NCBI GenBank assembly: GCA_965220385.1
Contig: OZ244825.1
Location: 42,429 to 106,428 of the forward strand
DNA: 64,000 nt
From: Candidatus Poribacteria bacterium
GTDB lineage: Bacteria > Poribacteria > WGA-4E > PCPOR2b
Reading direction: 5' to 3'
The notes under the pieces were generated by a model. It made no database searches. It saw only the letters and a list, made by a program, of their open reading frames with translations, and was not told where the DNA came from. The translations under genes were made by a program, and so were the position numbers. Shown in pieces: positions 50,984-63,858 of this stretch; the first letter of the stretch is position 1; each line of letters begins with the position of its first letter.

Positions 50984-51307
50984 TCTGAACTTTCCTCTGA
51001 TTTTAACGTCAATAACTTAAGCATTTACGTTTTGTGAATTGAGTGAAAGCCGGCGTGATGATTATCTGTGGCTTAAAATATGTTGAAGATACCAGGCACA
51101 GCGGGGTTTCATCCGGAAAATCACCGATAGATTGTATAAGGGCGATTGTGCTCCGCTTGAAGGCTTTATATGCTTGTGGTATAATTCCGAGATCGGTAGA
51201 CATTGGACCATTTTATCATGAATCTGAACGTATTTGGAGTGTTATTGAATAGATTTGACCAAAATCGGGAAGAACGTGTCCAGTCGTGGGAGCGTAGGCG
51301 CCGAATA

Positions 51308-54300
51308 ATGACATTCGGCTGGTGGTGGTTTATTGTTATTCTATCATTCCCTATTGGCTGCATGTTTATCATACCTGACGAGACTCCGGAAGCGAACGAT
51401 CCAGCTGCGCCTTGGAAGTCAACTGAACTTTTGAGCGATCAGGTCAACGCTATCGCAGCAGATGCCCAACATATCTGGGTCGCAACCGATAAAGGGATCA
51501 ACCGTTTCAACAAGCGCGAAAATTTGTGGATAAGTTACACAGTCGAAGATGGGCTGGCGAATAACAAAGTCTCTAGCGTGGCAGTTGATGGCAACACCAT
51601 CTGGTTTGGAACGGAATCCGGCGTTTCAAAATATCAACCCAGAATCGATAAATGGACAACCTACACCCGCGACGATGGTCTGCCGAGTAATCGTGTCATG
51701 GCTATCGGTGTAGATGGGAACTACATCTGGTTCGGCACAGATAAAGGTTTGAGCCGATATAATAAAGCGATCGATGTTTGGGCACTTCGCACCACCGACG
51801 ACGGTGGTCTGACCAGTAATGAGATTTCCGCTATCGCTGTCGAGGCTGAGTATGTTTGGTTCGCTACCGACAAAGGCGTATCCAGATACGATAAGAAAAT
51901 CGATTCATGGACACAGCTGACCAAAAGCGCCGGTTTAGCAGATGATAACGTCACAACTATCGCTATTGATGAGGATTTTATCTGGTTCGGTACGCAGAAC
52001 GCCGGCGTGAGTTTATACAGCACTACTGAGCAAACATTTGTAAAAACCTACACACGCACCGATCTGCTCGAAACGGATAAGATTAACTACGTCTTGGTTG
52101 ATGGTTTGTATGTCTGGATTGGTACCGCAAATGAAGGTGTTCAAAGATATATCAAACCGGTTGATACGTGGGTCCACTACAGGATAGAAGATGGGCTTCC
52201 ATCGTCAAATATCACAGCGATGGTAGTTGATGGTCAGTATGTCTGGTTCGGTACTTATGAAGACGGGTTAGCACGGTTTGATAAAATTCACGGTCTTTGG
52301 AATATCGTCAAGAAGGCGGAAGGATTAGTGAGCGACAACATCAGATCGATTGTCGAACAGGACGGTGTCCTTTGGGTTGGCACGGCGATGGGGCTCAGTC
52401 GATTTGACTTGCAATCCGGAGAATGGAGAACCTACACCAAAGCGCAGGGCTTGACGACCAATTATATCACCCGAGTTATCGCTGATGGTGATACCATCTG
52501 GGTTGGCACGTCAAAGGGCGTAGGACGATATCAGAGCGATCAGTGGAAATTCTGGAACCGTCAACACGGGCTGCCCAGCGATTTTGTCCTCGATATAGCG
52601 GTGGTTGATCAGATGGTTTGGGTCGGTACGCGCGCTGGGCTTTGGCAGTATAACCGGGAGAGTGATAAATGGCGGATCGCTGAACACCTAAAAGGAATGC
52701 GGATAAATGCTATCGCCATTGATACTAACTCGCTTTGGTTCGGAACTGATCGAGGCCTAATCCAATTCATCGATGGACATTTCACCTTTCACACCTCACA
52801 CCTTTCTCTTCACATCAACACCATAGCAAATGAAAAGAACATACTCTGGATTGGGACACGCAATGGGCTTTCCATGTTCGATAAACGGGAGAGAAGATGG
52901 CATCATTTCACAACAGAGGATGGGCTGCCGAATAACAACGTAAGAACACTCGCTATCACCGAAGATGCGCTGTGGGTGGGCACGCCGAGTGGCTTGGGTG
53001 TACTCCCTCGCAACCGATGGAGCCCCTCCACCATAAAATCGGAGGACTGGCGACAGTTCGACTTAACCCAGCCGGGGGTGGTGATGGGACATGAAAATGT
53101 CCGAGATATTTGTGTTATGGATAATCAAGTTTGGCTGGGAACGATCGGCGGCTTGGGTGTATATTCTCAGCAGGATAACGCTTGGCGATCGATTCGTGCA
53201 AAAGAACGGACGGTTGTCCTGCGTCACCGCGGCATACAACATACAGAGCTGGATGGCGATTGGGTGTGGTTTTTGGCGTGGGAAAATACATCCAACGGGG
53301 AAATCATTCGGTATGACAAGCGGACAAGAACTTGGACGCACTACATGAAAGAAGATGTGACAGAAAATCACCGAGAGGATTCGCACCAGCCAGTCCGAGA
53401 TTCAAGGCATGTTGGTAAAAGGAATCTACACCCGTCCACTCCGAATGAAGAAACTCCATACATCGCTCAAATTGATTGGATGGACGTAACTAATGACAGT
53501 GTATGGTTCGCCACGGACGGCGGAGTGCTCGCTTATTATAAAGAATCGGATACATGGCGACATTACACCACTAAGGATGGACTGGCTGCGAATAAAACAA
53601 CAACATTGATGGTTGACGGAAATGACGTATGGGTCGTTTTGAGGGATAATCGCATCTGTCGCTATCGACGGGATACTGATGGCTGGGAGACCCATCAAGT
53701 GGTTTTTAAGGAAATCTCTCCTGATATGGAATCATACCGCACGCGTCTTGCAGCAGACAGACGCTATGTCTGGGTACCAGCACAGAGGGAGGGCGTGGCA
53801 CGCTACGATAAACAGAATGAAACGTGGAAGCGCTACACTTCAGCAGATGGTTTGCAGGATGATAGCGTCGGCTTTGTTGTTGTGGATAACAATGATGTGT
53901 GGGCTTACGGCGGCTGGGGTGGAGGCTTGAGCAAGTACGACGCGAACACAGATAGCTGGGTCATTATTAATTCCAGTAAAGGGTTAGTTGCCGACCAGAT
54001 CCGGGAAGTAATCTCCGGGGTAGACTATATGTGGGTGTTGTATAACCAAAGTTGGTGGGAAGGAGACGACACCGTCCCTGCCAGCGGATTTCACAGAGCC
54101 AATCACACTTGGCAGGTGTTCCGAGGGCATCCAGAGAGTGTGGGAAACAATTTCAGAGATGTTCAAGAAACGACTGAATTCGTCTGGTTCGGAAGCGAAG
54201 AACACGGAATCAGTCGATACGATAAGGCCTCCTCATCTTGGACGGTTTTTACGAAAGAGGATGGACTACTGGATAATCGCATCAACTATCCAACTTTGAA

Positions 54301-55339
54301 AGCCGATAGCAACTTCATCTGGATGGGCAGCCGCAGCGGTCTCAGTCGTTATGACATGCGTAAAGATAGCTGGACGGTATATACGGGGAGGCGCGCCCTG
54401 CCCGCAGAAGTGGTACATGCGGTCGCTGTTGATTCGCGCTATGTTTATTGTGGAACAGAGCGGGGTGCAAGGCGCTACGATAAGCAGAATGACTTTTGGC
54501 TACAGAAGCGCATCGTAGAGGAGCCCGTGAACGATCTTGCTGTTGATGATAAATACTTGTGGATAGCAACCTCCAAAGGCGTTACCCGGTTCGATAAATC
54601 CGCGCATTGGGCAGACCTGCACGAGGCTGAAAACGGCTTGGCTGATACATTCGTCAAAGTTGCTGATGTAGAGGGACGCACCTTATGGGTCGGTACGGAT
54701 AAGGGGGTGAGCAGATACAATACGCTTTCGGACGACCCGAATGCTTGGGATAGCTTTAGGCGCGCTGACGATGTGGACACTATGTTATTGTCTCAAGAAT
54801 ACGCCAATAGCCTCATAGATAACCGAGTGACCAGTATAGCGGCAGGAAATCGTTACGTCTGGGTGGGGACGGAGAGAGGTATCAGTCGTTATGACATGAA
54901 GAAAGAGGTCTGGGTGACCTACGCACGGCAGGAGGGATTGCACCACGATAAAGTAAGTAGTATCTGCATTGACGGCGATTGGGTTTGGTTCGGTACGGAG
55001 GCAGGTGTCAGCAAGCTAAACACAAAAACGGAAGAATGGAGTGTCTTCACATCGTCTGACGGTTTAGCCAGCGATCAGATCACCAGTATCATTGCAAATG
55101 GTAACTTCGTGTGGTTTGGTAGTTTCGATGCTGGCGTGTCACGCTACAATAAGATGACGATGAAGTGGCAACACTTTACCCAAAAAGATGGACTTAGCCA
55201 TAATCGGGTGTTTGCGCTTGCCGTAGATGGTGATTTCCTTTGGGTGGGGACGGAACGTGGGCTGAGTCGGCATGACACAGTGACAGATACGTGGACAATC
55301 TTTACTCCACATTTCGATGAAGAAGAAGACCGAAGATGA
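51308..55339 (+). CDS. Giant multi-beta-propeller lipoprotein 1 (two-component regulator propeller-type repeats)
   Basis: Lipobox FPIGC; about 28 repeats of YTxxDGLxxNxVxxIAVDxxxVWFGTxxGVSRYDKxxxxW; no kinase domain. Confidence 0.85.
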   Translation: MTFGWWWFIVILSFPIGCMFIIPDETPEANDPAAPWKSTELLSDQVNAIAADAQHIWVATDKGINRFNKRENLWISYTVEDGLANNKVSSVAVDGNTIWFGTESGVSKYQPRIDKWTTYTRDDGLPSNRVMAIGVDGNYIWFGTDKGLSRYNKAIDVWALRTTDDGGLTSNEISAIAVEAEYVWFATDKGVSRYDKKIDSWTQLTKSAGLADDNVTTIAIDEDFIWFGTQNAGVSLYSTTEQTFVKTYTRTDLLETDKINYVLVDGLYVWIGTANEGVQRYIKPVDTWVHYRIEDGLPSSNITAMVVDGQYVWFGTYEDGLARFDKIHGLWNIVKKAEGLVSDNIRSIVEQDGVLWVGTAMGLSRFDLQSGEWRTYTKAQGLTTNYITRVIADGDTIWVGTSKGVGRYQSDQWKFWNRQHGLPSDFVLDIAVVDQMVWVGTRAGLWQYNRESDKWRIAEHLKGMRINAIAIDTNSLWFGTDRGLIQFIDGHFTFHTSHLSLHINTIANEKNILWIGTRNGLSMFDKRERRWHHFTTEDGLPNNNVRTLAITEDALWVGTPSGLGVLPRNRWSPSTIKSEDWRQFDLTQPGVVMGHENVRDICVMDNQVWLGTIGGLGVYSQQDNAWRSIRAKERTVVLRHRGIQHTELDGDWVWFLAWENTSNGEIIRYDKRTRTWTHYMKEDVTENHREDSHQPVRDSRHVGKRNLHPSTPNEETPYIAQIDWMDVTNDSVWFATDGGVLAYYKESDTWRHYTTKDGLAANKTTTLMVDGNDVWVVLRDNRICRYRRDTDGWETHQVVFKEISPDMESYRTRLAADRRYVWVPAQREGVARYDKQNETWKRYTSADGLQDDSVGFVVVDNNDVWAYGGWGGGLSKYDANTDSWVIINSSKGLVADQIREVISGVDYMWVLYNQSWWEGDDTVPASGFHRANHTWQVFRGHPESVGNNFRDVQETTEFVWFGSEEHGISRYDKASSSWTVFTKEDGLLDNRINYPTLKADSNFIWMGSRSGLSRYDMRKDSWTVYTGRRALPAEVVHAVAVDSRYVYCGTERGARRYDKQNDFWLQKRIVEEPVNDLAVDDKYLWIATSKGVTRFDKSAHWADLHEAENGLADTFVKVADVEGRTLWVGTDKGVSRYNTLSDDPNAWDSFRRADDVDTMLLSQEYANSLIDNRVTSIAAGNRYVWVGTERGISRYDMKKEVWVTYARQEGLHHDKVSSICIDGDWVWFGTEAGVSKLNTKTEEWSVFTSSDGLASDQITSIIANGNFVWFGSFDAGVSRYNKMTMKWQHFTQKDGLSHNRVFALAVDGDFLWVGTERGLSRHDTVTDTWTIFTPHFDEEEDRR

Positions 55340-55499
55340 TTTTAAAATAGAACGTTAGAAGGTTGGACTTTAAAGGGATTCTTCTCGCGGCGGGATCTGA
55401 GTCAAGACATAGCAGAAGAAACACACTATTTCACGGTTTTGGAAAAGCGTCTTGAGTAAAGGACAGCAACCGCTGTTTCTTACAGAAAGGCACAAAAGG

Positions 55500-58400
55500 A
55501 TGCGTCAAGTTCATATAATCTTAGGTTTCATGATACTCCTGTTTTTGGCGAATTGCGCCACACATGACCCACAACAGGTGCATCCTGATCTTTTCGTCGA
55601 TGAAGACGGCAGCATAATCAGCCAACTCCTCAGCGACCGCGTCCTATCCTTAGCTGTTGATTCACGCTATTTGTGGGTTGGGACCGACCGTGGGTTGAGT
55701 CGATACGATAAGATGCAAGGTCGGTGGCGTAATTTCACTGTAAGAGACGGTTTGGCTCACAACCACATTTTGTCCATCGCTTTGGACGACCTTCAGGTCT
55801 GGATCGGCACACGCGACGGCGTGAGTCATTACGCGATGGACACTGATAGATGGAAGCGCTACATGCCCCGTGATGGCTTGGCGGGTCGTGAGGTCTCCTG
55901 CATCGCTGTTGATTCGAGATTTATCTGGTTCGGCACGCCAAATGGACTCTCTCGGTATGATAAAGAGACGGACAGTTGGGCGCAGAAGCGCGAGAGTGAT
56001 GGACTTGCGGGTGACTTTGTTACGCAGATCGTGATAGATGACGATTACATCTGGGTCGGTACCGAGAACGGAGTTTCCAGATATGACAAACTTACCGATT
56101 CATGGAACAACTATGACAAGGAAAGTGGACTTATTGATAATAGCGTGACTGCAATCGCCGCCGATGAAGATTCCGTCTGGTTTGGTACGGAGAATAAGGG
56201 GCTCAGTCGCTACGACCAACGGAATTCGGAATTCGTCAGAGCGTACACAAAAAGGGATCGATTGACGAGTGATCAGATAAACGCGCTGGCAGTCGATGGA
56301 ACGTCACTATGGTTAGGGACTGCCGATAGTGGTGCGCAGCGCTACATTTTATCTGTCAATACGTGGCGAGAGTACGCAACAGAAGTGGGGTTACCTTCCA
56401 ATCATATTACGGCAATTGCTGCCGATGGCAACGTGGTCTGGTTCGGCACGTACGAGCATGGACTGGTACGATATGATTTACGTCGTGAACAATGGAGGAT
56501 TTATGGCGAAGTTAAAGCGTTGAGCGACAATGATGTAAAGGACATTTTAGTGACGGATGAGTCCGTTTGGGTGGCAACACGATCCGGCTTAAACCAGGCA
56601 ATCTACCTCGAAAATTCGAACTTTTCAGCGGGGCTTAATTGGAGGACGTTGAGCAAGGCAGAAGGTTTGGCGGATAACTACATTACCGCTGTGGTGGAAG
56701 TGGGAAAAGATTTGTGGGTTGGCACACCTCGCGGTTTGGGAGTGCGACGCGAGGGCGAGGACAAGTGGATATTTTTTACAGAGAAAGACGGATTGCCGCA
56801 CGACTTCGTGACCTGCGTTGCGTGGGAAACGGTGAATAGAGGTGTGGAGAGGACATCTTTACGTCTATGGATTGGGACAAAGGCAGGGCTTTCGACCTAC
56901 GATCCTCAAAGCCGAAAATGGAATACACCTCCCTCCGAATTGCAAACCTCCGGTTGGATCAACGATATCAAATTAGAGGAGAACTTTGTCTGGGTTGGTA
57001 CGACAGAGGGACTCGTCTACTATGATCGGTCTACCCGCACTTCGGGTACACTGACTGAAGCGGATGGGCTACCCTCAGATGTGATTAACACTGTTGCAAT
57101 AAAGGATAATTCTATCTGGATCGGCACAATATCCGGTTTAGTACAGATAGACAGGTCGATAATCACACCTTCCGTCCAAGGATCCACGTCCCGCTCCGCC
57201 TGTCCCGATTCCATCGGGGAGGATTCCGATGGAACTGGAGCAAGCGGGATTTCACGTTTCACGCCTCATGCCAACGTCAGGGCAATTACTGTTGATGACG
57301 ATACCATCTGGATAGGTGGGCCGTCGGGATTGGCAAAGTACGATACTGCAAAAGATCTGTGGACACATTACACCCGCGAGAATACCAACGGGGGACTCAT
57401 CTCCGATAATGTTAAGGTCATTTCAGAAGGCAGCGGTAAGCTTTGGGCGGGTACAATCGCTGGGGTCAGTTGTCTGGACAAAGAGACAGGCAGCTGGTCG
57501 AAACACGTTGCAGCGATGACAACAGAGGTGCTGCACTCGAATTGGGTCAGCAAGTTGGCGGAGGATGGGAGCGGACTCTGGTTTGGCAATTGGAAGGATT
57601 CCACAGAAGGCGCAATTGTAAGGTATGATAGACAGACAGACACGTTCCGCTTCTTTAGCAAAGATGACCTTCCATTGAAATCTATTGAGAGACCGATCAC
57701 GCGCATACACGCGGTGACTGTGGATGAAAGTGAAGTATGGGTCGGCACCAATGGTGGGCTATTACGCTACGATAAAGAAACGGATACGTGGCGTCATTAT
57801 ACTATTGAAGACGGTCTGCCAAACAATGAAGTTTGGACGATTGTTCTTGATAGTCAATATCTCTGGACAGCGCATATTGGTGGTGTAGTAAGTCGTTATT
57901 CACTTGAGACGGATACATGGAAAACCTATGAAATTGTGCCGAGCGTAGAATGGAGTAACATTGGGACCATCGCTATTGATCCTCAATATGTCTGGGTGAC
58001 AACGGTTTGGGAGGGAATTAAGCGATATGATAAATCAACGGATCGGTGGAGCAGTATTACGGAAGCACACGGTTTGGGGAACAATGAAGCCAATGACTTG
58101 CTCGTTGATGGCGATTATATCTGGGTCACGGGTTGGGGGGATGCTAGCCGTTATGATCGGCGAACCAAAGAATGGGAGATATTCTCAAGTCAGCATGTAC
58201 TCTCAGATGTGAATTTCGGGATCGATAAGGGACAGGATGGTGTTTGGCTTACATACTCGGGGTGGAGCGGCGCGCTTGCGTCGAAGTATAACAATAAGAC
58301 CGATTCGTGGACAACATTAAACCTCCCGGAGATTGAAGGGCTTGATTTTGGACGTACAAAACAGGTTGTTGAGACCACGGATACTGTTTGGTTTGCGGCA

Positions 58401-59576
58401 GATCGTCAGGGGTTGGCTCGGTATAACAAAGCTGCAAAGGATTGGGCATTCTTCGGTGAGGAGAACGGACTGCCAAGCAGTGACATCATCGAACATTCTT
58501 TGGTGGTAGACGATGATTATGTTTGGGTGGGGACCGCTGGGGGATTGAGTCGATACGATCCTAAAGAAGAGGTCTGGACCACTTTCACGCAGTCTCCATT
58601 GGCACGAACGCTCCGCGAATCAAAAGTGTACGCAATCGCCGCCGAAGCGCGTTATGTATGGTTGGGGACAACCAACGGCTTACATCGCTACGACAAACAG
58701 ACAGATCGTTGGTTTGCTCCTCGTCTGAAGGGGCTGAAAGATATGGAGGACGACACACCAAGTGTCACCTGCCTAACGATTGACGAGAAATATGCGTGGC
58801 TCGGTACTAACACTGGTGTCCTGCGCTACGATAAAGCCGGTGATCGTTGGGAAAAGTACACCGTTGAAAACGGTTTGCCTTCCAATACCATCCGAGATCT
58901 GGATGTAAAAGGCTACGACTTATGGGTCTCTACAGACCGCGGCGTTGCGACGTTCAACCGTCTGTCTGATGATCCGAATGCTTGGGAGTCGCACACACAG
59001 GCACTGGAGGTCGAAGGTATGGGAGCCGATAAGAAATATGCCCAAACACTTCTGAGCGATGATGTCCGTTGCGTTGCGATCGGTGAGAAGTTGATCTGGT
59101 TCGGCACAGACAAAGGGGCTTGCCGATATGATAAAGATAAGAAGACATGGGAAACTCTTGCTAAAAATGTTCCCGCCCTTGATAAGGTGGAAAGCCAGAA
59201 CGATCTCACAGACACTAGCGTCATTGTCATTGATGAAGGGGACATCTGGTTCGGTACGGGTAAGGGAGCGACAAAATACAGCGTCGAATCTGGGGATTTC
59301 GTTATCTACACTCAATCGGACGGTTTAGCAAGCGATATTGTCACCTGTATCGCTTTGAATGGGGAGGACATCTGGTTCGGTTCGGCGGATGCAGGCGTCA
59401 CACGGCTGGATAGAAACACGGGTGACTGGCGTGTCTTTAATATAGACGACGGCTTGTCCCATAATCGAGTTGAAGCAATCGCAGTTGACGGTGATCAGCT
59501 CTGGTTTGGGACAGAGCGGGGCTTGTGTCGGTACAATCAGAAAACTGGGACATGGACAAGCTATGCTGAAGATTAA
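55500..59576 (+). CDS. Giant multi-beta-propeller lipoprotein 2
   Basis: Lipobox FLANC; same repeat and collinear landmarks as 51308..55339. Confidence 0.85.
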   Translation: MRQVHIILGFMILLFLANCATHDPQQVHPDLFVDEDGSIISQLLSDRVLSLAVDSRYLWVGTDRGLSRYDKMQGRWRNFTVRDGLAHNHILSIALDDLQVWIGTRDGVSHYAMDTDRWKRYMPRDGLAGREVSCIAVDSRFIWFGTPNGLSRYDKETDSWAQKRESDGLAGDFVTQIVIDDDYIWVGTENGVSRYDKLTDSWNNYDKESGLIDNSVTAIAADEDSVWFGTENKGLSRYDQRNSEFVRAYTKRDRLTSDQINALAVDGTSLWLGTADSGAQRYILSVNTWREYATEVGLPSNHITAIAADGNVVWFGTYEHGLVRYDLRREQWRIYGEVKALSDNDVKDILVTDESVWVATRSGLNQAIYLENSNFSAGLNWRTLSKAEGLADNYITAVVEVGKDLWVGTPRGLGVRREGEDKWIFFTEKDGLPHDFVTCVAWETVNRGVERTSLRLWIGTKAGLSTYDPQSRKWNTPPSELQTSGWINDIKLEENFVWVGTTEGLVYYDRSTRTSGTLTEADGLPSDVINTVAIKDNSIWIGTISGLVQIDRSIITPSVQGSTSRSACPDSIGEDSDGTGASGISRFTPHANVRAITVDDDTIWIGGPSGLAKYDTAKDLWTHYTRENTNGGLISDNVKVISEGSGKLWAGTIAGVSCLDKETGSWSKHVAAMTTEVLHSNWVSKLAEDGSGLWFGNWKDSTEGAIVRYDRQTDTFRFFSKDDLPLKSIERPITRIHAVTVDESEVWVGTNGGLLRYDKETDTWRHYTIEDGLPNNEVWTIVLDSQYLWTAHIGGVVSRYSLETDTWKTYEIVPSVEWSNIGTIAIDPQYVWVTTVWEGIKRYDKSTDRWSSITEAHGLGNNEANDLLVDGDYIWVTGWGDASRYDRRTKEWEIFSSQHVLSDVNFGIDKGQDGVWLTYSGWSGALASKYNNKTDSWTTLNLPEIEGLDFGRTKQVVETTDTVWFAADRQGLARYNKAAKDWAFFGEENGLPSSDIIEHSLVVDDDYVWVGTAGGLSRYDPKEEVWTTFTQSPLARTLRESKVYAIAAEARYVWLGTTNGLHRYDKQTDRWFAPRLKGLKDMEDDTPSVTCLTIDEKYAWLGTNTGVLRYDKAGDRWEKYTVENGLPSNTIRDLDVKGYDLWVSTDRGVATFNRLSDDPNAWESHTQALEVEGMGADKKYAQTLLSDDVRCVAIGEKLIWFGTDKGACRYDKDKKTWETLAKNVPALDKVESQNDLTDTSVIVIDEGDIWFGTGKGATKYSVESGDFVIYTQSDGLASDIVTCIALNGEDIWFGSADAGVTRLDRNTGDWRVFNIDDGLSHNRVEAIAVDGDQLWFGTERGLCRYNQKTGTWTSYAED

Positions 59577-62500
59577 TAAGAGCACGAAAGTTCAGATAAA
59601 TCGAGAATCCTCGCATAGCAGGACGGAAAGACGACTGTTGTCTCGTTATTTCGTTGTTTTTCTATTTTATTTTCAGGTTTTCGCCCTACTCTTTCACTTT
59701 GGGTGTGGTTTCACCCAAATTGATTCGCGTGACGAACAATCGGCGGCGCTGGAAGAAGCAGCGATTACCCAAACAGCGACGAAACAAGCGTTAGTCAGCG
59801 ATAATGTCCGTTGTATATCAACCTCCGCTAACCAGGTTTGGGTAGGGACAGATCGGGGTGTCAGCATCTATCATAAAGTGGATAACCGTTGGACAAAGTT
59901 AGACCGGTCCGATGGGCTGCTCTCTGATGACATTACTGCCATCGCCGTCGACGGGGAATCTGTCTGGATAGGTACGACACTCGGTGTCAGTCTTTATGAT
60001 CCCAATGCAGCGGAACGTTGGACAAAGTTCCAACAACGGGACGGCATAGCAAGCAATAGAGTCACTGCCATCGCTGTGGATGGGAATCATATCTGGGTGG
60101 GGACCGAAGCGGGTATCTCGCGTTATGATAAGACGACAGGGGCGTGGGCGTTACAGCAAGAGAAGGATAAAGATTCATTTAACGTAGTCACGGCAATTGC
60201 TGTCGAATCCGAGTATGTTTGGTTCGGTACAGAAGACGGTCTCCGTCGATACGACAAATCCAAGGACGCGTGGAACACTTATACAAAAGAGGAAGGGTTG
60301 GTAGAAAACCATATCCGCTGGATCGCTTTAAGTCCTGACGCTGCTTGGGTGGGTACGGAGAAGTCAGGTGTAAGCAAGTTCAGTACAATCAACCAGACCT
60401 TTACTGAAAGCCATACCCGAACGGATCTTATAGAGAGCGATTTCATTAGAGCGATTGCGGTTGATGGCGACAACGTCTGGTTTGGTTCGGCAGACCGCGG
60501 AATTCGACGATACATTACAACGGTGGATACTTGGCTTAAGTACACGACAGCACAAGGTTTGGTCAGTGACCACATTACCGCGTTGGTTGTTGATGGTAGG
60601 AATATTTGGATTGGCACATACGAGCACGGTCTGGGCCAATACGATAAGGTGACAGATGGATGGACATGGTATGCCAGGCGCGACACGCTGGTATCGAATC
60701 AGATTCAATCACTGGTTGTAGCTGAGAATGCACTCTGGGCAGGTACAAATAAAGGTCTGAGTCGCTACGCGCTTTACGAAAAAACGTGGAGAACCTACAC
60801 CAAAGCAGATGGCTTAACAACCAACTATATTACCGCTTTGGCAGGGGGCGACGACGGGGCACTCTGGGTTGGAACGGCCTTGGGATTAGGAACACTCGAA
60901 GGAGAACGGTGGCGTTTCTACACCGAGCGGAATGGATTGGCAGACAATTTTGTTACCTGTATTGACCTTTCCGATAAGATCTGGGTCGGGACGAAAGGTG
61001 GATTAAGTGCCTTAATACAAGAACCCCTAACCTCTTCGTCACAATCGGGGAAGGTCGAGCAAATTCCGACAAGGCGAGGATCCTCGCAGAGCGGGACAAG
61101 AAGTCTTCACGAATCTACGCACATCACCGCGAATCAAATAAGTGTAGATGATTCACGAGGCTCGGCGAATGGCTCTCGCGTTTCACGTTTCACGTTTCAC
61201 GTTTTGCGCCAACCCTATCTCACCGGCAAGTGGGTAACAGCAGTGCTGGCAATTGGTGAGGAGGTTTGGGTGGGAACGACAGAAGGGTTATATCGGAGAG
61301 GTGCTACGAGGGATAAATTTGAACCGTTTCCCCCGATAACGGGTTATGTCAATACACTTACGTTCAACCCGGATGGAAGATTGCTAGTCGGTACTCGGAA
61401 TGGGTTATGGATTATTCGCCCCCCCTTTTATCGCCCCGATAGCGGGGGGATAAGGGGCGTAACCCACATTACCGATGGTCTGCCAAACCTGAATGTCCGG
61501 GCTATTGCAGTAGACAAAGAAACCGTCTGGATCGGGACACCGGCTGGAATTGCACGCTCCGATGGAGCCAGAATTCAACAGGTGTTTACGATGCAGCCAG
61601 AGGGTTTGCTGCACAATAATGTTCAGGGTATCGCTGTTGTGGGTAAGCAGGTCTTTTTCGGTACGGTTGCAGGCGTTGCTGTCTATGACGTAGAGAAAAA
61701 TTTGTGGGATAAGCATACCCCATATCGTGATACAGAAATTCTGAGAGAAGATCAAGCGCGTTGGATGGAGTTAGATGGGCACTATCTGTGGGTGCTTAAC
61801 TGGGCGGCTTCCCCGAATGGCGCGATTTTAAAATTCGATCGCCGTACCGATACGTGGATAGAGTACACAAAGGACGCGCTACCCATCTCATCCGAAGTCC
61901 CATTTATCACCGCAATTCGACGGTTAGCGGTGGGGACAGAAGACGTCTGGTGTGCGACGGGGGATGGCGGCGTGCTGCGATACAACAAAGCCTCTGATAC
62001 ATGGACGCACTTCACAAGATCATCGGGCCTGCCGGGACATCATGCTACACTCATTGAACTTGATGAACCAAATGGCGTTTGGGTTGCCTTCCAAGGCGGC
62101 GTAGCAGCGCACTATGATACGCGGACAGAGAAGTGGCAATCGGTGAAGGTGACGGAAGCAGGTCCCGGTAGGTACATCGAAGATATTGCCTGTACGAAAG
62201 ATTATGTCTGGTTTTCCACAAATGGCGTTGGGGTCAAGAGATATGAGCGGACGACGAAAACTTGGCGCTCATACACGGAAGCGCAAGGTATGGCTTCTCG
62301 CTCCGGTGAGTGGATTGCCGCGGACGGAGAGGGAGTGTGGACCAGCGGCGGAAGTTCTTATTCGTGGGTCAGTGACCGGGGAATGAGCGGTGTGAGTTAC
62401 TATTCGCTTATCGACGATACTTGGACAATCTATGATAGGCGCAAGGGGCTGCGGGTTAATTGGACGGGGTCCGGACAGGTCAGCGAGAACTACGTCTGGT

Positions 62501-63858
62501 GCTTCGGTTGGAGTGGTATCAACAGGTACGATAAAACGGGCAGGTCGTGGACTTCCTTCACGCGAAGCGATGGACTGCCTGAATCATCGGTTGAGGCTAT
62601 TTCGGAGGATAGCGATGGCTTCTGGGTCGGCACGGGCGATGCGGGTGTGCTAAAATACTCACAAGCGTCTGGGGCATGGACAGCCTTCACGGTCGAGGAT
62701 GGACTCGTTCACGATAGCGTCTGGAGATACCAGCTTAAAGTCGATTCAAAATACGTCTGGGTCGGCACATCGAAAGGCGTGAGTCGCTATGATAAAGAAA
62801 AAGAAACATGGATATCCTTCACCAAACCAACCACCTTAGCGGACCGACGATCGGTTGCTGTTGCTACCGATTCCCGGCACGTCTGGGTTGGTACGCATCG
62901 AGGCTTGAGTCGATACGACAAACGGTACGACAGATGGAAACACTTTGAAAAACCGGACGAAAGATCAGAAAGAGATCAGGACGAGGATGGAGATGAAGAG
63001 GACGATGAGGAAGAACAGGAGCCAGAGACAACAGATGAACTGGTAGATAACAATGTCATTGACTTGTCCGTTGGGAAGCGGTATATTTGGATTGCGACCG
63101 AAGGTGGGGTTGGTCGGTACGATAAAATCGCGGATCGGTTTGAATCGTACACTAAAGAAAATCAACTGCCCAGTGTTGATATTCGAGCGGTTGTCGAAAA
63201 TCGAAGCGATGTGTGGATTGGAACAAAAAACGGTATTAGTAAGCACAGTATTCTCTCCGATGATCGGAACGCTTGGGAAACATATAACGCCGCTATTGAA
63301 ATCCTGCCAACAGTGGAGGGAAAATACGCCAAGAGCCTCGAAAATGATGATGTACGATGTCTTGCGGTAGACGATAACCGCGTTTGGGCTGGAACAAAAA
63401 CAGGGGTCTCGCTTTATGCAATCAAACAGGGGACGTGGACTACTTTTACTCAAGAGGATGGGTTAGCGAGTGATGAGATTAGTTGTATTGCCATTGACAA
63501 CGGGCAGGTCTGGTTCGGTAGTGGACGTGGTGTGGCAGTGCACGACACGGTAAATGGAACGTGGAAAGCAATTACAGAAGCGGATGGCTTGAACTCAAAT
63601 CTTATTACATCAATGGCAATTCGCGGGAATCAGATCTGGTTCGGTACGTTCGACAAGGGAGTCACCATGTTGGATAAAATCACAGGGGAGTTTACAAACT
63701 TCACCAGAGCGGACGGGCTGCCGCATAATGGCATTCTATCGATTGCAACCGATGGTGACTACCTCTGGTTCGGTACGCATGGCGGGTTGACCCGTTATGA
63801 TTCTCTGACAGGCACATGGACGGTTTATACCGAGCGGTTTGATCATGATGGCATTTGA
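59563..63858 (+). CDS. Giant multi-beta-propeller lipoprotein 3
   Basis: Hydrophobic segment then HFGC; same repeat; ATG overlaps the end of gene 2 (true start may be the TTG near 59638); acidic loop near 62956-63030. Confidence 0.83.
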   Translation: MLKINKSTKVQINRESSHSRTERRLLSRYFVVFLFYFQVFALLFHFGCGFTQIDSRDEQSAALEEAAITQTATKQALVSDNVRCISTSANQVWVGTDRGVSIYHKVDNRWTKLDRSDGLLSDDITAIAVDGESVWIGTTLGVSLYDPNAAERWTKFQQRDGIASNRVTAIAVDGNHIWVGTEAGISRYDKTTGAWALQQEKDKDSFNVVTAIAVESEYVWFGTEDGLRRYDKSKDAWNTYTKEEGLVENHIRWIALSPDAAWVGTEKSGVSKFSTINQTFTESHTRTDLIESDFIRAIAVDGDNVWFGSADRGIRRYITTVDTWLKYTTAQGLVSDHITALVVDGRNIWIGTYEHGLGQYDKVTDGWTWYARRDTLVSNQIQSLVVAENALWAGTNKGLSRYALYEKTWRTYTKADGLTTNYITALAGGDDGALWVGTALGLGTLEGERWRFYTERNGLADNFVTCIDLSDKIWVGTKGGLSALIQEPLTSSSQSGKVEQIPTRRGSSQSGTRSLHESTHITANQISVDDSRGSANGSRVSRFTFHVLRQPYLTGKWVTAVLAIGEEVWVGTTEGLYRRGATRDKFEPFPPITGYVNTLTFNPDGRLLVGTRNGLWIIRPPFYRPDSGGIRGVTHITDGLPNLNVRAIAVDKETVWIGTPAGIARSDGARIQQVFTMQPEGLLHNNVQGIAVVGKQVFFGTVAGVAVYDVEKNLWDKHTPYRDTEILREDQARWMELDGHYLWVLNWAASPNGAILKFDRRTDTWIEYTKDALPISSEVPFITAIRRLAVGTEDVWCATGDGGVLRYNKASDTWTHFTRSSGLPGHHATLIELDEPNGVWVAFQGGVAAHYDTRTEKWQSVKVTEAGPGRYIEDIACTKDYVWFSTNGVGVKRYERTTKTWRSYTEAQGMASRSGEWIAADGEGVWTSGGSSYSWVSDRGMSGVSYYSLIDDTWTIYDRRKGLRVNWTGSGQVSENYVWCFGWSGINRYDKTGRSWTSFTRSDGLPESSVEAISEDSDGFWVGTGDAGVLKYSQASGAWTAFTVEDGLVHDSVWRYQLKVDSKYVWVGTSKGVSRYDKEKETWISFTKPTTLADRRSVAVATDSRHVWVGTHRGLSRYDKRYDRWKHFEKPDERSERDQDEDGDEEDDEEEQEPETTDELVDNNVIDLSVGKRYIWIATEGGVGRYDKIADRFESYTKENQLPSVDIRAVVENRSDVWIGTKNGISKHSILSDDRNAWETYNAAIEILPTVEGKYAKSLENDDVRCLAVDDNRVWAGTKTGVSLYAIKQGTWTTFTQEDGLASDEISCIAIDNGQVWFGSGRGVAVHDTVNGTWKAITEADGLNSNLITSMAIRGNQIWFGTFDKGVTMLDKITGEFTNFTRADGLPHNGILSIATDGDYLWFGTHGGLTRYDSLTGTWTVYTERFDHDGI

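Follow-up and report, generated by a model that had tools for sequence, protein, structure and literature searches.

Three tandem beta-propeller genes on the + strand of the 64,000-nucleotide stretch of Candidatus Poribacteria DNA analysed here (the window, G000:C1:42429-106428) carry in-frame inserts that are very probably selfish DNA resembling repetitive extragenic palindromes (REPs) and Rickettsia palindromic elements (RPEs). Short repeats dispersed through the intergenic space of the genus appear to have landed in frame in these genes, where they are read as predicted loops. The inserts share DNA identity with dispersed families, are present in some orthologues and absent from others, leave the reading frames open and lie in low-confidence loops of structure models. 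The genome under study (G000; 6.36 Mb in two contigs) was compared at this locus with 15 members of its genus and, as the outgroup, with G023 from another genus; these 16 relatives and G000 make 17 genomes.

An earlier note on this DNA had placed four paralog-specific insertions in these genes and proposed that intergenic repeats were creating new peptide loops. The insertions are real: an alignment of the paralogs has extra residues exactly there, the excess being ~30 aa at 57160-57270 of gene 2, ~60 aa at 61021-61205 of gene 3 and ~26 aa at 53365-53450 of gene 1, and the 61417-61459 stretch of gene 3 is 6 residues longer than its gene 1 counterpart. The three open frames run through the inserts, as the note had also stated. 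Intergenic DNA homologues were found for the hairpin core, the heptamers, the module and the palindrome family described below, and among the 16 relatives the sites are present, absent or differently filled for three inserts. The proposal is supported for three of the four inserts, the gene 1 insert showing no repeat ancestry.

The repeat content of the genes was mapped by counting all genomic 12-mers on both strands and plotting them along the 12.6 kb of genes 1-3. The counts have a median of 2 and a 99th percentile of 7, and reach 30 or more at only four spots, three of which are claimed inserts: 57195-57220 (up to 245), 57250-57266 (up to 146), 61179-61205 (up to 146) and a 14-mer at 62020-62033 (37-57). 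Since the share of all possible 12-mers that reach 30 genomic copies is 9e-5, chance alone would give about one such position, compared with the 27 seen. The 14-mer at 62020-62033 (TCATCGGGCCTGCC) sits at the conserved ..SSGLPG.. motif of gene 3. It was ruled out as an insert because no orthologue has an indel there, and for the same reason it is probably a chance or convergent overlap with a repeat family.

The genes, inserts and repeat units are as follows.

51203-55339, + strand: gene 1, 1378-aa Reg_prop beta-propeller, start codon uncertain (Pfam PF07494, E 7e-44)
52778-52813, + strand: degenerate heptamer array in gene 1, a fifth site, encoding HFTFHTSHLSLH; Tandem Repeats Finder (TRF) period 7 at 52789-52803
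53360-53461, + strand: gene 1 insert (ins1), genus-wide and paralog-specific, fold z = +0.80
55452-59576, + strand: gene 2, 1374-aa Reg_prop beta-propeller (PF07494, E 2e-42)
57175-57249, + strand: gene 2 insert (type X), 75-nt composite inside a heptamer array, reading frame giving ..QGSTSRSACPDSIGEDSDGTGASGI
57199-57219, + strand: nested hairpin unit CCTGTCCCGATTCCATCGGGG, 21 nt, 12-mer counts up to 245
57250-57270, + strand: heptamer remnant (TTTCACG)2 plus CCTCATG, encoding SRFTPH, modelled as a beta-strand
59470-63858, + strand: gene 3, Reg_prop beta-propeller (PF07494, E 3e-47)
61021-61205, + strand: gene 3 insert (ins3a), lineage-specific stack of ~60 codons with heptamers at its end
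61078-61096, + strand: module GGATCCTCGCAGAGCGGGA inside ins3a, a small dispersed family
61180-61206, + strand: (TTTCACG)3 array, encoding VSRFTFHVL, TRF score 52, 12-mer counts up to 146, modelled as a beta-strand
61419-61459, + strand: nested palindrome (ins3b), 40 nt, with the in-frame peptide RPPFYRPDSGGIRG

Gene 2: hairpin units within a heptamer array

The gene 2 region measures 177 nt in G000 against 102-105 nt in five empty orthologues. The nested mini-element and heptamers noticed there earlier both proved to be dispersed, with 200 genomic copies of the hairpin core and 57 arrays of (TTTCACG)≥2. The spot at 57195-57220 is a hairpin unit (..CCGCCTGTCCCGATTCCATCGGGGA..) with the 14-mer core CCGCCTGTCCCGAT, and the 200 copies of this core yield the family consensus TCCCGCCTGTCCCGATTyATCGGGGATTTATCGGGG. 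A 25-mer of the unit has 26 genomic matches at three or fewer mismatches.

The site is filled in several ways. In five of the 17 genomes it is empty (102-105 nt) and reads ..CACGTTTCACGTTTCACG.., that is (CACGTTT)3, encoding HVSRFTFH. Another five (G000, G011, G017, G010 and G009) carry a type X composite of 57-84 nt, three have a related composite of 63-66 nt (type Y), and in three the insert is an A-rich hairpin unrelated to these (type Z). The outgroup sequence is longer and of another kind. Among the type X genomes, an extra 21 nt (CC[T/C]GTCCCGATTCCATCGGGG) is found in G000 and G011 only and is lacking in G017, G010 and G009. Judged from the sequences, this difference is a clean nested gain, or else a clean loss.

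Gene 3: a stack and a nested palindrome

The larger gene 3 insert, ins3a, had been described as a stack of a hairpin, an 'empty host repeat', CACGAAT/CGCGAAT-type units and (TTTCACG)3. The heptamers are borne out by TRF and by the 12-mer counts, and the 'empty host repeat' corresponds to the GGATCCTCGCAGAGCGGGA module, of which the genome has nine copies and a reversed-sequence control none. Each of the other eight copies is preceded by a CCCGAT-like hairpin, exact or with few changes. The remaining two components fared less well. The hairpin, ACCTCTTCG..CGGGGAAGGT, could not be upheld, as its predicted fold (-1.8 kcal/mol, z = +1.04) is matched by 174 of 200 shuffles; the genome search returned no second copy of it. 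The CACGAAT/CGCGAAT-type units reach a 12-mer count of only 8, and the rest of ins3a finds its best match in three intergenic copies with CACGAATCTACGCGAATC, at 75% over 63 nt.

The ins3a site varies greatly in length when measured as the aligned stretch across it, which is longer than the insert itself. This stretch is 246 nt in G000; its two closest relatives have 243 and 213 nt and nine others 171-234 nt, so that the range over these 12 genomes is 171-246 nt. By group, it is 171-189 nt in about nine genomes and 213-246 nt in G000, G009, G011 and G010. Four genomes have a short form of 102-105 nt consisting of heptamers and TSQVPNP, and the outgroup has 84 nt without heptamers. In G010, a CCCGATCCCAATCGGG hairpin occupies the place of the GGATCCTCGC module of G000.

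The second insert, ins3b, is the palindrome that had been noticed at 61417-61459, and its DNA does fold strongly (-17.8 kcal/mol, z = -3.78), with none of 200 shuffles folding as well. It is present in 9 of the 17 genomes and absent from 8, including the outgroup. Where present, it adds a net 30 nt and replaces ~15 ancestral bases. Only two other loci carry it in G000, both with the whole 40-nt nested unit CCCCCCTT-TATCCCCCCGC..GCGGGGGGATA-AGGGGGG; its repeat nature is evident only from the relatives. A 143-copy word, ATCTACGTGATGGA, was rejected, since its consensus translation marks it as an unrelated coding repeat.

G017 lacks both gene 3 inserts, yet its flanks most resemble those of its clade. 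At the palindrome site, its empty state has the look of an ancestral sequence and not of an excision. A gene 3 segment imported from elsewhere would account for the empty sites of G017, but was ruled out with 240-nt sliding windows, all of which are nearest to the clade of G017 at 0.86-0.97 identity, although a short-patch import may be compatible with this result.

Gene 1: two further sites

The gene 1 insert is real and paralog-specific as claimed; the repeat ancestry is what failed, since the genome search found no other copy in G000 and no repeat homology, and its fold is not significant. In a protein alignment of 17 orthologues, every one of the 16 genus members has ins1 and the outgroup lacks it. 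At the DNA level, compared in eight orthologues, the outgroup has 48 nt versus 105-270 nt in seven genus members. Other species have further in-frame pieces here, namely a 51-nt palindrome, purine-rich tandem repeats and, in two species, a CCCGAT hairpin.

A fifth site lies at 52778-52813, where a degenerate heptamer array stands in for the canonical blade strand seen in the outgroup. At this position G001, G013 and G005 carry one to four stacked CCCGA-type hairpin units directly after ..TTTCACGT, with stacks of two to four in G013 and G005. The junction after ..TTTCACGT is identical to that of gene 2: in both genes the hairpin composites directly follow the ..CACGT of a heptamer array, and the junction ..CACGT/CCCGA..CGGGA/TTTCAC is common to genes 1 and 2 of eleven genomes. 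Every insert site examined is polymorphic among orthologues.

Repeat families across the genus and in other genes

The families were counted in 31 genomes, 19 of the genus (G000 and 18 congeners) and 12 from six other genera. The hairpin 14-mer has 200 copies in G000. The two closest relatives have 104 and 103, the next two 47 and 35, and the other congeners 0-51; it was found in none of the 12 genomes of other genera, and the reversed control gave 0. The heptamer dimer has 15-144 matches in each of the 19 genus genomes and none in the other 12. Palindrome core loci number 59 in G001 (at least 26 with the exact 24-nt core), 16 in G012, 10 in G004, 9 in G003 and 3 in G000, with none in four congeners or in the 12 genomes of other genera, and the reversed-pattern control gave 0 in all 31. 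Because the abundances of the families parallel the inserts, insert contents track the expansion of each family. TTTCACG arrays are confined to the genus among the 31 genomes searched. In intergenic arrays they are often found in alternation with CATCACG units, and several of these arrays sit immediately 5' of a start codon.

Both the hairpin and the heptamer families are mostly intergenic. A copy was counted as deep in an open reading frame (ORF) when 100 or more open codons flanked it on both sides; in G000 this applies to 4 of the 200 hairpin cores, to 3 of the 57 heptamer arrays and to 9 of the ~157 CCCGATn3-4ATCGGG loci. Nine other long ORFs contain hairpins or heptamers, and all are Pfam-bearing: GFO_IDH_MocA, ECF sigma, PFK, Lnt, GT1, sulfatase, ABC transporter, POTRA (BamA-like) and Ldh_2. 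The PFK-family gene (G000:C1:5370908-5372248) has a private 51-nt (17-codon) in-frame insert, GSDLSECSPMESGQAEQ, which is built of the gene 2-type composite and is absent from all 12 orthologues found, two of them at 90% identity.

A tree based on 3,895 gap-free columns of the three proteins groups G000 with G009, then G011, G017 and G010, with 99% support each. G000 contains nine matches to Y1_Tnp (PF01797), none of which is flanked on both sides by a CCCGAT hairpin. The region of G000:C1 at ~5.967-6.013 Mb is repeat-dense, with several heptamer arrays, three copies of a CACGAATCTACGCGAATCTACACGAAT element and three of the nine Y1-transposase matches.

The host genes

The three genes form tandem open frames of 1378, 1374 and 1462 codons (~1,400 aa each) at 51203-63858. 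The frame of gene 3 is open from 59470, with the ATG at 59563 as the likely start. The genes are paralogs with products 39-40% identical pairwise; all three contain repeated PF07494 blade motifs, and the propeller models agree. The trio is adjacent in all 16 relatives. Gene 1 orthologues are intact in the 16 relatives examined, the frames of all three genes are intact in 15 of 16, and gene 2 orthologues have 76-91% identity in the 15 congeners. In the paralog alignment, all three proteins begin with a hydrophobic stretch and share an invariant Cys after it, which suggests putative export of the propellers and is the one basis for calling them surface proteins.

Other interruptions occur in these genes. 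In G005, gene 3 (L032:10963-11785) is broken into frames of 617 and 845 codons. The ~820 nt inserted there contain no hairpin units and resemble an insertion sequence lying in the reverse orientation. Gene 2 of the outgroup is broken into frames of 1035 and 332 codons lying ~1.2 kb apart. At 62971-63020, gene 3 of G000 has another insert not shared with its paralogs (..DQDEDGDEEDDEEEQEPE..), which is acidic, of low complexity and periodic at 21 nt (TRF score 56), and unrelated to the hairpin and heptamer families.

Structure models and RNA

AlphaFold2 models were made of a 388-aa segment of gene 3, with 20 orthologue and paralog rows, and of a 374-aa segment of gene 2. The gene 3 model has a mean predicted local distance difference test score (pLDDT) of 80.9 and a predicted template modelling score (pTM) of 0.79; the values for gene 2 are 82.9 and 0.82. 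In gene 3, pLDDT falls below 50 only at residues 168-220 (nt 61027-61185) and 304-308 (nt 61435-61449), and in gene 2 at residues 271-295 (nt 57168-57242) and a short stretch, 85-90. All of these coincide with inserts except gene 2 residues 85-90. As expected in the note, the inserts of genes 2 and 3 map to low-confidence loops, and they occupy the only long stretches with pLDDT<50. Both segments are predicted to be confident propellers with the inserts as disordered loops, and the heptamer-coded residues immediately after the loop are modelled as a beta-strand (E223-226 in gene 3, E298-301 in gene 2). Foldseek matched the gene 2 model to BT4663- and BT3049-type sensor propellers, 8-bladed designer propellers (TM 0.68) and PorZ.

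A sponge metatranscriptome contig of 205 nt (depth 3.6) spans 57177-57361 without a gap. It has 12 differences and therefore comes from a relative. In gene 3, RNA-library matches in the insert area are repeat-only pieces at 61179-61209, leaving ins3a and ins3b uncovered. No insert-skipping joint was seen in the RNA runs, which cover only the gene 2 site at 57177-57361. The gap-free contig is a weak hint against removal at the RNA level at that site, DNA carry-over being possible.

Origin of the inserts

The selfish-DNA reading would work as follows. Short dispersed repeats of the genus's intergenic space would have landed in frame in the three paralogous propeller genes, at the outer rim (the last strand and the following loop) of consecutive blades. 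Three kinds of repeat would be involved, namely 20-40-nt G+C-rich CCCGAT..ATCGGG hairpin units that nest into one another, a 40-nt CCCCCC/GGGGGG nested palindrome, and (TTTCACG)n heptamer arrays. The survivors would be copies that kept the frame, were stop-free and entered where the fold tolerates a loop, to be read through as disordered loops, and the heptamer array would encode a strand-like ..SRFTFH.. in place of a canonical blade strand. By reading of the sequences, the 26-nt hairpin unit is stop-free in all six frames; the TTTCACG strand of the array gives the same peptide in every frame, and the opposite strand contains TGA. We infer that the units are mobile, that translation extends through the loops, which would be tolerated without being useful, and, likewise, in which direction, gain or loss, each change went.

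Several observations weigh against this reading. Two inserts fit it incompletely: ins1 has no matches, and the body of ins3a beyond the 19-nt module and the heptamers matches elsewhere only weakly. The insert states are patchy on the tree, the palindrome requiring at least 5 changes and the gene 2 site at least 8, so recombination or allele sorting could explain their distribution as well as repeated gain and loss does; the empty palindrome site of G017 is ancestral-looking despite clade-typical flanks. Several events are not clean insertions, as the palindrome replaces ~15 ancestral bases and the PFK insert is accompanied by altered immediate flanks, and no consistent target-site duplication was found at the inserts. 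Such untidy junctions would also fit templated repair copying. A mobilising enzyme was not found among the nine PF01797 matches, of which two, both weak, have a CCCGAT hairpin within 700 bp. The TCACGT/CCCGA junction occurs just twice elsewhere in G000, and with only these two further junctions the idea that heptamer arrays are a general landing pad in this genome was rejected. The sole RNA contig is of low depth, from a relative, and could be DNA carry-over.

Some of these points would suit a local, non-mobile origin, in which a tolerant loop gathers heptamer slippage and template-switch palindromes and any likeness to repeats between genes arose by convergence. Many inserts have ragged boundaries at which neighbouring bases are replaced, no transposase link emerged from the Y1 matches, and ins1 and most of ins3a are without dispersed homologues; moreover, a 177-nt ins3a allele has AATGGGG on both sides of the ~72 nt missing in the short allele, which fits a slippage deletion. 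However, the gene 2 14-mer has 200 exact copies and its 25-mer 26 matches at three or fewer mismatches, the 24-nt palindrome core has at least 26 exact copies in G001 while both other G000 copies share the 40-nt unit, and the gene 2-type composite also occurs, as a private insert, in an unrelated PFK-family gene. Convergence cannot explain such identity at unrelated loci, which therefore counts against a local origin. We regard this origin as improbable overall, and it survives only for ins1 and parts of ins3a.

The inserts could instead be functional loops, repeats co-opted to diversify exposed parts of exported propellers against host, phage or ligand, with selection keeping the variability. 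There are at least five polymorphic insert sites in the three paralogs, clustered in neighbouring blades, and several unrelated inserts at one site; all three proteins have the hydrophobic N-terminus and conserved Cys, and their frames are all intact in 15 of 16 relatives. Yet the units also occur in cytoplasmic housekeeping enzymes (PFK-family, Ldh_2), where such a role is implausible, and the loops are predicted to be disordered, making this explanation unlikely, if slightly less so than a local origin. A bolder form of co-option, to which we give only a little more credence, is that the heptamer array and hairpin units constitute a renewable cassette system at the blade rim, a generator of surface diversity in a sponge symbiont. 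The array may supply both a replacement beta-strand and a docking point, and nesting, loss and short-patch exchange may then yield hypervariable loops of exported proteins. Least credible of all is removal of the inserts by intervening-sequence-like RNA excision or translational bypass, which would add no peptide. The inserts are hairpin-rich, but their lengths are all multiples of three and stop-free in 17 of 17 genomes, which would be needless if they were excised, and the RNA-library contig runs through 57177-57361 gap-free, no RNA run having a joint.

Relation to known repeats and significance

The selfish-DNA reading places the inserts beside several known systems. RPEs are described as elements of about 150 bp with a conserved encoded peptide, found in frame inside genes (Ogata et al. 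2000, as summarised in PMC10969869). Like them, the present repeats form a dispersed family with copies both intergenic and in frame within unrelated protein-coding genes, with a predicted extra peptide where the fold allows. Unlike them, the units are 21-40 nt and the composites at most ~75 nt (~160 nt in the gene 3 stack), short of the about 100-150 bp and conserved peptide of RPEs, and ~2-6% of copies lie deep in ORFs; the two are set apart here by description, not by sequences. The likeness to RPEs drawn in the earlier note is apt for the dispersed, intergenic and in-frame distribution and fails for size; with elements of 20-75 nt rather than about 150 bp, the link is one of analogy, not membership.

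A closer likeness is with the REPs and bacterial interspersed mosaic elements (BIMEs), a minority of which is reported to lie wholly within ORFs of known proteins in several species (Di Nocera et al. 2013, PMC3733652), and with the REPIN-RAYT systems described in PMC3116915. Here too, palindromes of 20-40 bp are G+C-rich, high-copy, mostly intergenic and clustered, with 200 core copies, ~157 CCCGATn3-4ATCGGG loci and 2-6% deep in ORFs. No GTAG tag appears in the consensus built from the 200 copies; GGGCGTC ends are seen on some units nearby. In contrast to REPs and REPIN-RAYT systems, the units nest, and no RAYT-like gene flanked by repeats was found among the nine PF01797 matches. Nesting recalls the small dispersed repeats (SDRs) of filamentous cyanobacteria, which Elhai and colleagues reportedly described in 2008 as 21-27 nt long, apparently mobile and inserting into one another, in genomes said to be rich in tandem heptamers as well. 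That description fits the 21-nt unit within a 63-nt composite in two of the five type X genomes and the stacks of two to four units at the gene 1 site of G013 and G005, although the SDRs belong to another phylum and have different sequences.

Dispersed heptamers are also described from Xanthomonas and Nostoc, GGGAATC and GGGGAYT (Rehm et al. 2015, PMC4692102). Shared features are 7-nt tandem units spread genome-wide, over-represented outside genes, with few intragenic. TTTCACG differs in not being G-rich and forming no G-quadruplex, and its array encodes a predicted beta-strand and adjoins hairpin inserts. No account of such repeats in Poribacteria was found among the literature matches listed. 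Two features are unusual here: a tandem heptamer whose predicted product is a blade strand, and the clustering of at least five polymorphic insert sites in three paralogs.

These findings extend the notion of selfish DNA translated inside genes to an uncultured phylum of sponge symbionts and to units of 21-40 nt, far shorter than those of the classic case in Rickettsia. The 17 genomes constitute a natural series of empty, filled and doubly filled alleles for working out the insertion chemistry of tiny elements. Lineage-specific loops in otherwise conserved proteins, a glycolytic-type kinase among them, call for caution from annotators and structure predictors. If the models are correct, repeat DNA can become part of a fold, and a 7-base tandem repeat may end as a structural beta-strand.

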